Assembly (NCBI GenBank): GCA_034530875.2
Contig: JAVRCJ020000002.1
Coordinates: 320,001 to 384,000, forward strand
Direction of reading: 5' to 3'
Length of the DNA stretch: 64,000 nt
Source of the DNA: Nostoc sp. DedSLP01
Lineage (GTDB): Bacteria > Cyanobacteriota > Cyanobacteriia > Cyanobacteriales > Nostocaceae
Below the pieces are notes generated by a model. The model searched no databases, was not told where the DNA came from, and saw only the letters and a program-made list of their open reading frames with translations. Positions 55,465 to 62,979 of this stretch are shown piece after piece. Position 1 is the stretch's first letter. Every line of letters begins with the position of its first letter. The translations under genes and the position numbers were made by a program.

Positions 55465-56748
<1,284 letters not shown>

Positions 56749-57134: not shown

Positions 57135-58973
57135 GTGCGCTTTCAATTTTTGGCGGTCGCGAAGGGAATTTTGTTGCCCAGTTTTGCTAAAGATTTCAAA
57201 GAGCAAAGGCAGGTATTTTCAGCAGGAACATACCTCGGCAACATCGCCAAGCCCGTACCATACTTGGAGGCTCCCAATCAAGCGTCCCACTTGTCTAAGA
57301 GGAGTGCGTTAACTAAAGGCCGCAAAACTTTTGGTGTAGTAATGGCGATCGCAACTTCAACGGCTATAACCGTTGTATCTGTGCCAAAAGCCAGCGCCCA
57401 GATTCCTTTTTTCCCGAATTTGCAAGCTCCCAGCAGTACGAGCAATGATAGCAATGACAGAGTTGTTTCCGGTTGGGTTTATTTGGATGGTCGTCGCTTA
57501 TTTCAAATTGCTGGGTCGAGAACTAGCTTTCCCGAGCGTTTAGAAGACATCCAAAAGAAACTCGAAGCAATTAGCCAATTTTACTTTCAGTCACCACCCA
57601 ACACACCAATCAAGACAGAAGTTCGCAAAGTCAACGATTTACCAGTCATTTATATCAACGACCAATATTTGATGACTGTTACCTCTGAAGATGCTGGGCT
57701 GCGACAAGTTGATATGTCAACATCGGCAAATCAAATTGCTGATTCCTTAAAAGAAGATTTACAACAGGCAAGACAAGAGAGACAAACTCAATTTTTAATC
57801 GAGCAAGCTAAAATTGCTGCGGCTACCGGAGTGGCAATGATTGTCATGAGTATGGGAGTAAATAGCTGGCAAAGGCGTTCCAAAAAAAATTCCAATCTCC
57901 TTACTACTCCCCAAGCCGAAAACGGATTCACCCCCTTAATTTCAACAACAACTCAACCAATTACAACAGAACTAAATCAACGACAAGACCGACATATCCA
58001 AGAAGCCAAAAGACGATTGTTCCAGCTAACTCAAGCAGGAATTTGGGGAGGTGGAAGTTTCTTTATTTTGGGTCTATTTCCCTACACGCGAGGATTTCAA
58101 GTAGCGATTCTCATGGCCGCCCAATTTCCTTTGCGATTAGGTGTTGTCTTACTGGTAACTTATGTAGCTGTACGTCTCAGCTATGCCTTAATTGACCGCT
58201 TCGCCTCGACTCTAATTAACACTAGTGCTTTTATCACTCCAGAAGATTCTGCACGCCTGCAACTGCGAGTTTCCACGTTTTCTGGTGTTACTAAAAGTAT
58301 TGCTACTTTTATCTGTGTAGCAGTAGGCTTTATACTGGCGCTGATATCCTTGGGTATAGATGTTGTACCTTTACTCGCGGGCGCAAGTTTGGTGGGTGTT
58401 GCCGTATCTTTAGCTTCGCAAAACTTGATTAAAGATGCGATTAACGGTTTCTTGATTATTTTAGAAGACCAGTACGCTTTAGGCGATGTGATTAATGTGG
58501 GAAATGTCGGCGGCTTAGTAGAAAATTTAAATCTGCGGATGACCCAGGTGCGGGATTCCGAAGGGCGCTTAATCACGATTCCCAATAGTGAAGTTAAAAT
58601 TGTTGCCAATCTTTCTAGCCGTTGGTCGCGAGCCGATTTAACGATTCCTGTCGATTACCAAGCCGATACAGACGAGGCTTTGAAGTTGATTAAAACCGTT
58701 GCGGATAACATGAATCAAGACCTGCAATGGCAGTATCAAATATTAGAACCACCGCAAGTTTTAGGCATAGATCAATTTGGCGATCGCGGTTTAATTATTC
58801 GTGTCTGGATTAAAACACAGCCCCTCAAACAGTGGGATGTCGCACGAGAGTTCCGCCGCCGCCTGAAAATCGCCCTAGACGAAGCCGGCATTACCATTTC
58901 CGTCCCTCAGCAAGCAATTTGGGTCAATGATAGCTCATTGGTGAATTTGCAAGGTAACGGAAAGGGTCATTAG
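57135..58973 (+). CDS. MscS-family mechanosensitive channel with N-terminal periplasmic domain
   Basis: ASQNLIKDAINGFLIILEDQYALGD, GLVENLNLRMTQVRD..GRLITIPN. AGGAGG RBS before GTG 57135. Alternative start at ATG 57342. Confidence 0.9.
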   Translation: MRFQFLAVAKGILLPSFAKDFKEQRQVFSAGTYLGNIAKPVPYLEAPNQASHLSKRSALTKGRKTFGVVMAIATSTAITVVSVPKASAQIPFFPNLQAPSSTSNDSNDRVVSGWVYLDGRRLFQIAGSRTSFPERLEDIQKKLEAISQFYFQSPPNTPIKTEVRKVNDLPVIYINDQYLMTVTSEDAGLRQVDMSTSANQIADSLKEDLQQARQERQTQFLIEQAKIAAATGVAMIVMSMGVNSWQRRSKKNSNLLTTPQAENGFTPLISTTTQPITTELNQRQDRHIQEAKRRLFQLTQAGIWGGGSFFILGLFPYTRGFQVAILMAAQFPLRLGVVLLVTYVAVRLSYALIDRFASTLINTSAFITPEDSARLQLRVSTFSGVTKSIATFICVAVGFILALISLGIDVVPLLAGASLVGVAVSLASQNLIKDAINGFLIILEDQYALGDVINVGNVGGLVENLNLRMTQVRDSEGRLITIPNSEVKIVANLSSRWSRADLTIPVDYQADTDEALKLIKTVADNMNQDLQWQYQILEPPQVLGIDQFGDRGLIIRVWIKTQPLKQWDVAREFRRRLKIALDEAGITISVPQQAIWVNDSSLVNLQGNGKGH

Positions 58974-58984
58974 AAATGGGGCAG

Positions 58985-59085
58985 GGGGAGATGGGGAGAT
59001 GGGGAGATGAGGAGATGAGGAGATGAGGAGATGAGGAGATGGGGAGAGAATTTCACCCCACCACCCCATCACCCCACCACCCCAT
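58985..59085. repeat. Octamer arrays (GRGGAGAT)x8 and inverted (CACCCCAY)x4
   Basis: Visible at 58985-59048 and 59054-59085. Confidence 0.85.
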
Positions 59086-59103
59086 ATTCCTAATTACTAA
59101 ATT

Positions 59104-59122
59104 AGTACTTTTGTACTATAAT
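59104..59122 (+). promoter_or_regulatory. Cyanobacterial LexA box overlapping a TATAAT -10 element
   Basis: AGTAC-TTTT-GTACT (59104-59117) fits RGTAC-N3-DGTWCB; TATAAT at 59117-59122. Confidence 0.72.
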
Positions 59123-59206
59123 AGAGAGATAGCATTCACAAAGCCTAGCCAAATGGATAACGGCTGCGTGAAAACCTTCTGGAAGATGGTTTAAAGGGTT
59201 AGTTCG

Positions 59207-59470
59207 ATGATGAAGCATTATATTCTCAACCTCAATCCGACTGCGAAGCATGAATGGGATCGCTGCATTTTACGTGACCCCTTGACGGCTAAGCGTCCGG
59301 ATATTGCCAAATTAATTGCTGAAGCAGTTGGTGCGGATACAGGCAGTTATTTGGTGAGTGTAAATATCGAAGTTCAAGTGTTAGAACAAGCTGCGGTACC
59401 TCAAGCCGAACAACTCTCGCTTTCGTTTCCAGAGGTGAATGTACCCTCACAATTACGAGAAGCGGCTTGA
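59207..59470 (+). CDS. Small hypothetical protein (87 aa), candidate SOS-regulated
   Basis: Protein-like composition, its own promoter upstream, QLSLSF motif near the C-terminus. Confidence 0.75.
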   Translation: MMKHYILNLNPTAKHEWDRCILRDPLTAKRPDIAKLIAEAVGADTGSYLVSVNIEVQVLEQAAVPQAEQLSLSFPEVNVPSQLREAA

Positions 59471-59678: not shown

Positions 59679-61772
59679 CTAGGCTAGCTCAAATGCACCA
59701 ATATCTACTTTTTTACCAGAGATGCGACGGAAACCAATACCCCGTTGGTCGAATGGAATTGGCTCGGTAGTATTACCATCGCTATCTAAATCTGTAGTAT
59801 CGCTAGGTACGTCTTGATTTCTGCCGCTATTGATAGCAGGGCTACCAGCAACTAGGGCATGGGTTTTGACTAAACCACCGTTGTTTTTTAACTTGAGATC
59901 GATAACTTTGGCGATCGCAACTTTTAACTCTTCGCTACTATTAAAGCCTGTACTGCCACTGCGACGTCCAATCAGGTTATAGCCGTTGCTGGCGAACTTA
60001 CCTACGACATCTGGATTGATGGGGTTAGTTGCAGACTTGTTATTGCCAGCAATGATGCTGTTTTTAATCTTGGCAGTACCTTTGAGATTGTAGATGCCAC
60101 CACCTTTGTTATACTTGCCTTTTTCGCGATCGTAAGCGGTATTGAGGACAATAGTACTATTGCCCACAGTTATAGTGCCATCATTGTTATAAATACCACC
60201 ACCACCGTAGTATGCAGAGTTACCGCTGATGGTGCTGTTGTATAGCGTTACAGTACCATCATTGTTGTAGATGCCACCGCCAAAGCCTTCGTAGTAGTCG
60301 TAGCTGAAAGAGCCTATTGCTTTATTGCCACTAATCGTGGTGTTAATTAGCTTCAGAATCCCATCAGTATTGTAGATACCGCCACCATCAGATGTTACTT
60401 CATTGCCACTGATAATGCTAGCGATCGCTGTGAAGGTGTCACCATTGAATATACCGCCACCTCTGCCGTCAGAGAAGAAAGCTGTGCCGACATCGTTATC
60501 GCTAACAGTGCTGCTCTTTAAAGTAAAGACATTATTATTGTAGATACCGCCTCCGATATAAACTGCCTTGTTGCCGCTGATAATGCTGTTGGTAACACTC
60601 GCAGTACCATTGGTCTTCTCACCATACCCGAAGCCGTTGGCAATACCACCACCGTAGTAACCTCCATCGTTATTACTAATGGTATCGTTGCTGAGAATGA
60701 GAGTGCCATTATTGTAAATACCACCACCGGAGCTGTTGGATTCGCCACCTGCTACGTTGTCGCTGATGGTGCTGCCGATTACTGTTGCACTGGCAACGTT
60801 ATAGATACCGCCGCCATAGCTGGCATTATTACCACGGATATTAGCGTTCCTGACGGTTAGCGTACCTTGATTGTAAATACCGCCACCAAAATATCCAGTA
60901 TTGTTACTAATGGTGCTGTTTCTGACTGTCAGGGTGCCATCGTTGTAGATACCACCGCCACCTACTTCAAACGAGGTATCGTCTGCATTATTGTTAGTGA
61001 TGGTAGTGTAGCTAACAGTTAGGATACCAGAGTTGTAAATACCACCACCTGATGCTTGGTCTGCATGATTGCTGGTGATGCTGCTGTTATTGACATCAAT
61101 AGTACCAAAGGTAGTATTGTAGATACCGCCGCCTGAACTGGGGTAGTAGTTGTTATTGTCGTAGTTAGCTACCTCATTGCCACTAATGGTACTGTAGTTC
61201 ACAGTCAAGTTGCCGTCGTTGTAAATCCCAGCGCCGTCATATATTGCATTGTTGCTACTGATGGTGCTGTTATTGACTGTTAAAGTGCCACTGTTGTAGA
61301 TCCCGCCTCCCCTTTCGTTTGCATCGTTACCAATAATCTTGCTGCTATTGAGTGTGAGGTTACCAGAGTTGTAGATACCGCCGCCGTTATCGGCAGTGTT
61401 GCCAATAACATTACTGTTGCTTAAGGTGAGGACACCACTATTGGAAATAGCACCACCGCCTCCTTCGCTACTGTAGCTATTGGTAATAGTTAGCCCGTTG
61501 ATAGCAGCACTAACACCATTACGAATGTCAAAAACACGAGAAGCAGCATTTTTTATAATGCTTAGTAAGCTGGCATCTGTACCTTGAATGGTAAGATTAT
61601 CTTTGATAGTCAAGCTACTACCAGTCAAATTGATGGTATCAGCGATCGCATCATTAAACAGTCCGCCAAATTTGATAATGTCTCTTCCTGTAAGGGCATT
61701 GGCATCTGAAATTGCCTGCCGCAGCGAACCAGCACCACTGTTGTTAGTGTTAGTAACGGTAAATGTAGCCAT
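59679..61772 (-). CDS. Secreted/surface beta-helix repeat protein with choice-of-anchor Q-like C-terminus
   Basis: N-terminal VTNTNNSGAGSLRQAI, many GGGIYN repeats, C-terminal NGG..THAL..SPAI..G...DQRG..R...DIGAFE. Confidence 0.85.
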   Translation of the reverse strand: MATFTVTNTNNSGAGSLRQAISDANALTGRDIIKFGGLFNDAIADTINLTGSSLTIKDNLTIQGTDASLLSIIKNAASRVFDIRNGVSAAINGLTITNSYSSEGGGGAISNSGVLTLSNSNVIGNTADNGGGIYNSGNLTLNSSKIIGNDANERGGGIYNSGTLTVNNSTISSNNAIYDGAGIYNDGNLTVNYSTISGNEVANYDNNNYYPSSGGGIYNTTFGTIDVNNSSITSNHADQASGGGIYNSGILTVSYTTITNNNADDTSFEVGGGGIYNDGTLTVRNSTISNNTGYFGGGIYNQGTLTVRNANIRGNNASYGGGIYNVASATVIGSTISDNVAGGESNSSGGGIYNNGTLILSNDTISNNDGGYYGGGIANGFGYGEKTNGTASVTNSIISGNKAVYIGGGIYNNNVFTLKSSTVSDNDVGTAFFSDGRGGGIFNGDTFTAIASIISGNEVTSDGGGIYNTDGILKLINTTISGNKAIGSFSYDYYEGFGGGIYNNDGTVTLYNSTISGNSAYYGGGGIYNNDGTITVGNSTIVLNTAYDREKGKYNKGGGIYNLKGTAKIKNSIIAGNNKSATNPINPDVVGKFASNGYNLIGRRSGSTGFNSSEELKVAIAKVIDLKLKNNGGLVKTHALVAGSPAINSGRNQDVPSDTTDLDSDGNTTEPIPFDQRGIGFRRISGKKVDIGAFELA

Positions 61773-62607
61773 GCAAATGACTCCTGTTGTTATCAGGTTT
61801 ATGAAGATTGAACTTAAGGCTAGTGCTTGTACTGCTACGAGTCTTGGTAATTTATTTTATTGCTCGGTGGTATTGAAAAATGAGTTTTTTTCAAACAGCA
61901 TCAATTTTGACAGTTGCTGTAACATCCACTGTCAAGGAAAGTGAACTACGCGATCTCAGTCTCAAACTCTGACGTAAAGCTGTTTTAGGTCAGAATTGCA
62001 ACTTCTGAAGTCTGCCTGTATGTCTTGGAAAAAGCGATGCCTGCGGCGAGTTATGCTAAATGTTCGGGACATGAGGTTAAGTTTTAGCAAAACCCAAAAT
62101 AGAGTTAAGTTCTGCTATAACTCAAACCTAAGTATTTAGTTTTATAGCTAAGTCTACAGGGAATTAGTGTGTCGCAGGGTAAAAAAATATACAAATAAGC
62201 TTGAATTCATATAGCTTACTAGGAATAAGTATATACAAATACAAAAATTTCTATTAAAATTTAAGGAGAGTTTATATTAACTTCATATTTGAGAAACTTT
62301 TATAAAGATAGTATAAAGTAAAGCGTCACTTCCCTTACGTAATGGTTTAGCTAGATTGCAAAATTTTCTCTGGGCTTGACAGGTGCAAAGAAATAAATTT
62401 ACAGACTTTTAGCTAAATTCAAGTAAATCTGACTAGAACAGAGCCATTATATTGGTCAAAAACCGTAAAATTTACTATAATAAATATATACCGTTAGTAA
62501 ACTTACTTAAGTATAAAACTGCTCTGTGACAGCCTTTGGGAAAATGGATTCCAGGGTTAGTTTTTTGCTTAAAGATTAAATTCTTGACCTTAGAGGAAAA
62601 TTATTAG

Positions 62608-62979
62608 ATGATGCAACTGAGTCATTATCCAGCTGCGATCGCCCAAGCTGCTCAACGGGCTAATGAAATAGACTCTCAGTTGATGGCAGTGCAGCACCAG
62701 ATTAACCGATTTGAAGGGAATGCGGATCGGGTTGCCGCGTTTGAGATGGATTTGAAAAATGACGCTCAACGCAAGGCGCGTCGTTTTGAAGTGCTGCTTG
62801 TGAATCAGGAATATCAAAAGGCAATGGACACTTTCATCCGCTTAACTAGCGAAAAGGCAAATGCCATCGGCCATTTGGAATATCTGCGTAACCAGTTTAG
62901 CGTAGCAAAGTTAGAAGCTAGATTAGCGATCGCTCAACAACTCACTGATTTTGAATCTCGTGAATTAGTCGGTTTGTAG
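62608..62979 (+). CDS. Hypothetical coiled-coil protein
   Basis: Helical composition, LKNDAQRKA motif, GAGG upstream. Confidence 0.7.
   Translation: MMQLSHYPAAIAQAAQRANEIDSQLMAVQHQINRFEGNADRVAAFEMDLKNDAQRKARRFEVLLVNQEYQKAMDTFIRLTSEKANAIGHLEYLRNQFSVAKLEARLAIAQQLTDFESRELVGL

Follow-up and report, generated by a model that had tools for sequence, protein, structure and literature searches.

A new family of small cyanobacterial proteins, probably LexA-controlled and probably a DnaN clamp client in the Nostoc family

Introduction

How DNA damage is coupled to replication and division in Nostoc and Anabaena is an open question; LexA is atypical in these organisms, and few members of its regulon have been characterised (PMC7283527). 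A locus of Nostoc sp. DedSLP01 bears on this question. In the 64-kb stretch of DNA that we analysed, here called the window, a sequence-only reading had pointed out a stand-alone ORF of 87 codons with a LexA-type palindrome at its promoter and, in the likely flexible tail of its product, a hexapeptide of the kind that binds the DnaN sliding clamp. It took the gene to be undescribed, and named conservation of both elements in orthologues and a complex prediction with DnaN as ways to check its case. Could this gene, then, supply a part still missing from the DNA-damage response of cyanobacteria, and what might its product do?

Results

The 87-aa ORF extends from its ATG at 59207 to 59470 on the forward strand. 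At the 90% level its product has 469 homologues; the gene was present in 375 of 389 genomes (96%) of the window's family, here the Nostoc family, nearly always as a single copy, and in 46 of 301 genomes sampled across the phylum, 12 of these 46 lying outside the family. Differences between orthologues at 63 loci fell on codon positions 3, 1 and 2 in the numbers 2652/865/455. The ORF is a real single-copy gene. Its product consists of a conserved core (residues 1–60), modelled by AlphaFold with block-wise pLDDT values of 83–89, and a predicted disordered tail (residues 61–87), in which pLDDT dropped below 50 at residues 66–73, 75–82 and 85–87. We found no family match in Pfam, PHROGs or NCBIfam, and no fold match for the monomer model among 48,161 PDB representatives or in BFVD; since this model has a pTM of only 0.50 and leaves a long strand (residues 48–59) unpaired, the blank fold search does not imply a new fold. 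Matches in the Atlas were confined to unnamed cyanobacterial clusters. One of these clusters bears the automatic label 'O-methyltransferase', which nothing else supports and which we rejected. By tblastn, annotated plasmids and phages yielded no match to the protein, and neither did a search of IMG/VR with the family alignment, so that the phage copy described below was reached only via a partner protein.

Upstream, the gene usually has as neighbours an mscS gene (57135–58973; Pfam MscS channel) and a divergent adenosylhomocysteinase-like gene (55465–56742), and these are kept in several genomes outside the family too. Between mscS and the promoter, at 58985–59085, short tandem repeats rich in purines precede a C-rich tract complementary to them; the region varies between strains and could form a hairpin that ends the mscS transcript.

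To place the gene in the published record, we compared it with the model strains PCC 7120 and ATCC 29413. The protein encoded at locus L127 is identical to P0037, an ATCC 29413 protein according to its source, and this locus carries the 14-mer listed for Ava_3961 by Li et al. 2010 (PMC3091678), in whose supplementary table of predicted LexA targets in ATCC 29413 this gene holds rank 12 of 403. Likewise, the 14-mer listed there for asl1412 of PCC 7120 is found at locus L128/L137, where the gene order is nifV-nifZ-nifT-alr1410 / all1411 / asl1412 / all1413 (mscS) / ahcY; an in-frame GTG 12 nt upstream explains the box offset listed for asl1412. The STRING legend names all1413 as a membrane protein. 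In the PCC 7120 table of the same study, asl1412 ranks 9th and recA lower, 77th. Matching the 87-aa gene by synteny and box, rather than by direct sequence look-up, we thus regard it as the putative orthologue of asl1412 and Ava_3961. The claim that the gene was undescribed holds for its function but not for its regulation: LexA control of asl1412 and Ava_3961 was already predicted by their ranking in the 2010 supplementary table (PMC3091678), whereas the literature that we searched contains no function, motif or phenotype for either gene, although further supplements and subscription articles about the LexA regulon of Anabaena may name asl1412. In the available main text of a preprint on LexA and gamma radiation (bioRxiv 2022.07.04.498681) we did not find 1411 or 1412, and a search for small clamp-binding proteins of the cyanobacterial SOS response returned only unrelated reviews. 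The clamp motif, the gene fusions, the phage-borne pair and the promoter duplication of the asl1412 family are newly described here.

We then turned to the promoter. The palindrome AGTAC-TTTT-GTACT occupies 59104–59117, and its last T is the first T of the −10 element TATAAT (59117–59122, forward strand), the end of which lies 84 nt before the ATG; the overlap and the distance of about 85 nt given by the sequence-only reading are therefore correct. A −35 element (59094–59099, forward strand) reads TTACTA here and TTGCCA in the family majority, and is separated by 17 nt from the −10. The putative operator thus sits within the spacer of a predicted sigma-70-type promoter. Over 83 orthologous promoters, column majorities were 0.48–0.72 in the −35 element and 0.76–1.0 in the −10 element, while the left half of the box, which lies outside the −10, is conserved at 0.71–0.96; the four bases between the half-sites are more variable, and upstream of the promoter the DNA of different genera could no longer be aligned. 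Allowing up to one mismatch, the box is kept in 69 of 74 orthologues of the family and in 8 of 12 outside it, these sequences being kin and not independent observations. Genome-wide, the palindrome shows no enrichment: 14 perfect copies in 8.57 Mb compare with about 10 expected, and a control with an 8-nt spacer also gave 14. The window contains a single perfect copy, and five copies with at most one mismatch against 1.08 expected. The weight of the palindrome therefore comes from its position and conservation, not from its count. Within 260 nt upstream of the genome's 6971 crude ORFs, a perfect box precedes 7 and a box with at most one mismatch 55. Among the boxed ORFs are some that we take, from their N-terminal sequences, to be lexA, ssb, uvrA, sbcC and dnaX.

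The sequence at 59104–59117 fits every position of the experimentally derived LexA consensus RGTACNNNDGTWCB (PMC3091678), and LexA of PCC 7120 is reported to bind such boxes at recA, lexA and ssb1 (PMC3091678, PMC7283527). Identification of the palindrome as the Nostocales LexA operator, as predicted from the letters, is thus borne out by consensus, promoter position, conservation and the 2010 ranking. Taken together, this makes it very probable that LexA binds the promoter and controls the 87-aa gene, which would then possess one of the best operators of the genome. At two loci (L117, L119), the box has shifted to just downstream of the −10 but is still kept; three others (L126, L118, L170) have no good box, though lexA is present in their genomes. 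Loss of the box does not track loss of lexA, which was found in the genome of Nostoc sp. DedSLP01 and in all five tested genomes with a weak box or none. At L117, L118 and L119, a different conserved ORF of 120–130 aa precedes the gene, and the box there is downstream of the −10 or decayed.

Whether the gene responds to DNA damage is a separate matter, on which published expression data for PCC 7120 provide some insight. There, asl1412 and all1411 form one transcription unit (PMC10287535). In three published BMAA proteomes, All1411 rose 4.55-, 2.7- and 5.26-fold and RecA 3.03-, 3.7- and 4.55-fold, so that All1411 followed RecA under each of the three nitrogen regimes. BMAA does not count as a defined agent of DNA damage, and the authors of the proteomes file all1411 under NtcA. 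On this indirect evidence, induction of the 87-aa gene by DNA damage is likely. An improbable alternative is that LexA here serves general or nitrogen stress instead of DNA damage, for example in connection with heterocyst development. It would agree with the increase of asl1412 by 3.6/3.4-fold after nitrogen step-down and its listing among the core genes of the heterocyst clade (PMC4365693), with the assignment of all1411 to NtcA, with a broad Anabaena LexA regulon that includes non-repair genes (bioRxiv 2022.07.04.498681), and with the RecA-independent, pH-dependent cleavage reported for Anabaena LexA in vitro (PMC7283527). However, orthologues occur in the 12 genomes outside the family, 8 of them with the box, and the partner follows RecA whatever the nitrogen regime. 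An NtcA site (GTA-N8-TAC) is absent upstream of the gene in the window and present at only 6 of 180 loci. Moreover, the asl1412-all1411 unit is overlapped in PCC 7120 by a strongly induced nifV-alr1410 antisense transcript (PMC10287535), and the step-down signal may be inflated because of this overlap. RNA runs offered contigs from relatives only: in three runs these begin at 59139–59148, a weak hint on the transcription start, and they cover both genes, one contig spanning the two, with strand, level and membership in a single transcript not readable from them.

The tail contains the hexapeptide QLSLSF at residues 69–74, preceded by Glu68 (E-QLSLSF, residues 68–74; 59408–59428, forward strand), and its placement in a flexible segment agrees with the model (pLDDT below 50 for residues 66–73). 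Among the 70 unique sequences of the family, a count that omits two loci cut by contig ends, Q69 and L70 are each present in 67 (0.96), E68 is conserved at 0.94 and L72 at 0.86, and position 74 is hydrophobic, whereas most flanking positions reach only 0.33–0.57. Codons vary freely, with six codons used for L70 across the family. The pattern QLx[LF]x[FILMV] appears in 110 of the 120 near homologues listed, most commonly as QLSLPF, QLSLNI or QLSLSF. This segment fits the clamp-binding consensus Q-phi-x-[LM]-x-[FL], for which acidic flanks are typical, and an Hda peptide of the closely similar sequence QLSLPL binds with 0.38 uM (PMC11139829). At the sixth position, 16 of the 70 sequences have I or V, which are weaker than F or L. 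Three family members (L112, L113, L180) have deleted the motif, and beyond the family it disappears: QLxL is found in none of the 12 orthologues there, although 8 of them keep the box, and just 4 of 63 distant representatives show a looser form, which in one case does not lie in the tail. The motif is therefore best seen as an addition at the level of the Nostoc family, and it does not define the function of the protein family as a whole. Conservation in orthologues, as envisaged by the sequence-only reading, thus extends across the Nostoc family but not past it.

To ask where such a tail could dock, we modelled the 87-aa protein with DnaN of the same genome. The complex scored 0.63, against 0.01 for the best of three controls, and so passed a mark reached by 116 of 157 solved pairs and by 2 of 215 mismatched ones. 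Its runs agreed in at least 73% of contacts, with a partner pLDDT of at least 69. Residues 65–75 contact DnaN residues 183–188 and 379–386, which correspond to the canonical cleft by their E. coli equivalents and are invariant in 30 DnaN sequences. The prediction thus came out as the sequence-only reading had hoped, with the reservation that structures of clamp–peptide complexes are well known and the pass may reflect what the predictor learned from them. With family-wide conservation, the fit to the consensus and this model on one side, and the absence of the motif from all 12 orthologues outside the family on the other, we consider the protein to be probably a DnaN clamp client in the Nostoc family.

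It also seemed conceivable that the gene is LexA-regulated, but that EQLxLxF forms a beta-strand or serves in docking, be it within an oligomer of the protein itself or to some other partner, leaving the core to act and making the fit to the clamp a coincidence. The hydrophobic alternation of the motif and the unpaired strand 48–59 of the monomer model are compatible with this, as are the retention of core, box and C-terminal end where the motif is missing, beyond the family and in three of its members, and the ease with which such strings arise: QLxLx[FL] can be read in 162 of the genome's 7032 crude ORFs (QLSL[SP]F in one). On the other hand, a near-invariant Gln-Leu at positions 1–2 is what the clamp cleft selects (PMC11139829), the model places residues 65–75 in the cleft and not on the core, and an SbcC-like and a RuvB-like protein of the genome end similarly. 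We therefore judge a motif for another partner to be rather unlikely.

The SbcC-like protein (G000 C2:248912-251938, reverse strand) ends in QLSLSI, and its gene has a LexA-like box with one mismatch; the RuvB-like protein (G000 C2:30430-31530, reverse strand) ends in EQLSLL, an end kept in 4 of 5 other genomes. By their letters, both ends are possible clamp motifs. On the side of the clamp, three family genomes contain second dnaN-like genes with longer open frames (G577:C99, G648:C3, G107:C2).

The protein terminates in LREAA (59453–59467, forward strand), a degron-like non-polar end. AA or VA closes the protein at 71 of 72 family loci, and AA, VA, AV or AS does so in 35 of 63 distant representatives, compared with 2.5% of the genome's ORFs. 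AA-type non-polar C-termini can act as tags for Clp or tail-specific proteases. Our search found no literature source for reading ends like this one as a degron, and we see about an even chance, judging by the sequence, that LREAA is a proteolytic tag.

The impression of a stand-alone gene applies to the local order in the window only, since the 87-aa gene pairs with another. This partner, at 62608–62979 on the forward strand, is the orthologue of all1411 and encodes a 123-aa helical hairpin (model pLDDT 92). It lies 46–117 nt downstream of the 87-aa gene at 7 of 12 loci outside the family and near it at many family loci; three proteins (P0322, P0323, P0329) have a partner-like N-terminus fused to the 87-aa core; and on a viral contig (L160) with terminase-, portal- and capsid-like genes, read by eye, the two genes stand side by side and lack both box and motif. 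Of the 46 genomes with the 87-aa gene, we located a close partner in 16, and in 4 of 30 of a second set, which was chosen largely from negatives. The two genes form a two-gene module that is not obligate. In the window, the partner is preceded by what the alignment identifies as a decayed duplicate of the promoter, 5' UTR and first codons of the 87-aa gene (62464–62589, forward strand), with the box degenerate; the duplicate recurs in many Nostoc loci, often with one or two mismatches in the box (not counted), and in G162 the partner, located on another contig (L141), has a one-mismatch box of its own. The sequence-only reading had overlooked the partner gene with its fusions and phage link, and also the degron-like C-terminus.

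Between the two genes of the module, the window carries on the reverse strand (59679-61772) a gene for a 697-aa Gly/Asn/Ser-rich repeat protein, and genes of a similar kind are inserted here in several other Nostoc loci. Distant copies of the partner gene (L155-L161, L229, L230, L236) reside on cyanophage contigs, in prophage-like regions and on small plasmids, for the most part unaccompanied by the 87-aa gene: we found none beside L155-L158, and the genes upstream of the plasmid copies are not homologues of the 87-aa protein.

The fold and phage association of the partner raise the idea of a domesticated phage recombination aid, in which a UvsY-like RecA loader would be brought to the clamp by the 87-aa protein. 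T4 UvsY and the partner are alike in length, in their helical hairpin and in having phage relatives. UvsY is also the nearest Pfam-named Atlas cluster (0.86; family on 19% of members), ranks 3rd and 4th in Foldseek with the partner model (E 0.34-0.38, TM 0.41), and is matched by VIA with a Z of 9.0 and an rmsd of 3.5 over 107 residues. Yet this last score holds only rank 28, tied with unrelated hairpins, and searches against PDB sequences gave nothing beyond coiled-coil noise. On sequence we rejected the identification of the partner as UvsY: profile-profile comparison with six UvsY sequences returned a probability of 0.4% (E 0.17), and there was no PF11056 hit. Neither did we recognise, by eye, a recombinase gene next to the three viral copies. 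A UvsY-like module is thus very improbable.

Small size, clamp motif, degron-like end, tight operator and the occurrence of the pair on a phage contig would also suit a brake on replication: in the manner of SocB or p21, the 87-aa protein would block the clamp and so halt replication for a time once DNA is damaged, until Clp proteolysis removes it, and the 123-aa protein would serve as its adaptor or antidote. There are precedents in toxins that target the clamp cleft, SocB of Caulobacter and RipA of S. pneumoniae (PMC12795458, PMC5422525). Against this, the partner is close in just 16 of the 46 genomes with the 87-aa gene, the motif is absent where the pair is tightest, and retention in 375 of 389 genomes, at a constant position behind mscS, looks more like a core function than an addiction module. 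A brake of this kind therefore appears clearly unlikely.

Discussion

Based on these results, the 87-aa proteins make up a new family, very probably under LexA control, whose members in the Nostoc family probably turned into clamp clients. Of the roles offered by the sequence-only reading, namely replication checkpoint, polymerase switch and mutagenesis modulator, none is favoured over the others by our evidence. The best reading of their role, to which we would give slightly less than an even chance, is that of a LexA-repressed SOS accessory protein whose tail tethers the core to DnaN at stalled forks. With LexA bound to the promoter spacer, the gene would be silent; upon loss of LexA, the protein would be produced, in the ancestral state from a transcript shared with the 123-aa hairpin protein. 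The 60-residue core, probably an oligomer, would bear the original activity of the family, linked to that of the partner. Within the Nostoc family, a hexameric clamp-binding motif would have arisen in the disordered tail; by inserting into the cleft of DnaN, it would tether the core to clamps at stalled forks or at gaps, in competition with other clamp clients. If the Ala-Ala end made the protein short-lived, its effect would be a pulse. Action at forks, taken on its own, we regard as plausible but a little short of an even bet.

Known clamp clients help to place this proposal. As in E. coli Hda (QLSLPL) and Pol IV/DinB (QLVLGL), the tail offers Q-L-x-L-x-hydrophobic in a disordered segment that, in the model, enters the same cleft. 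But Hda and Pol IV are large enzymes, whereas the motif considered here is attached to a 60-residue core without a recognised activity and is followed by 13 residues and the degron-like end. SocB and RipA act at the hydrophobic cleft of DnaN in which the 87-aa tail docks in the model, and SocB is under ClpXP control (PMC12795458, PMC5422525); they trigger SOS or competence, however, while the 87-aa gene is predicted to lie downstream of LexA and has no obligate antitoxin. The partner, for all its outward likeness to T4 UvsY, has no sequence-profile support and a fold score no higher than that of unrelated hairpins.

A more far-reaching scenario, which we consider unlikely as a whole, would join these observations into one history: a two-protein module shared with cyanophages would have entered the LexA regulon of filamentous cyanobacteria, and in the heterocyst-forming family its small subunit would have gained a clamp tail before the degron, thereby becoming a damage checkpoint, almost universal and self-limiting, that would sit in the cleft of DnaN and possibly link replication stress to heterocyst differentiation. 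The comparison for such a checkpoint is p21 or PAF15 on PCNA, of which it would be a bacterial analogue.

Should binding to DnaN hold true, the 87-aa protein would add a new, non-enzymatic family to the SOS clamp clients and exemplify the addition of a clamp motif to an older, phage-linked module. The motif is specific and mutable and has a predicted target, and with asl1412 the putative orthologue is available in PCC 7120, which is genetically tractable. Besides the 87-aa gene, four other ORFs of the genome that we did not recognise as SOS genes have a perfect LexA box upstream (G000 C2:217674-218198, C3:81285-82736, C5:27932-28429, C6:122529-123551).
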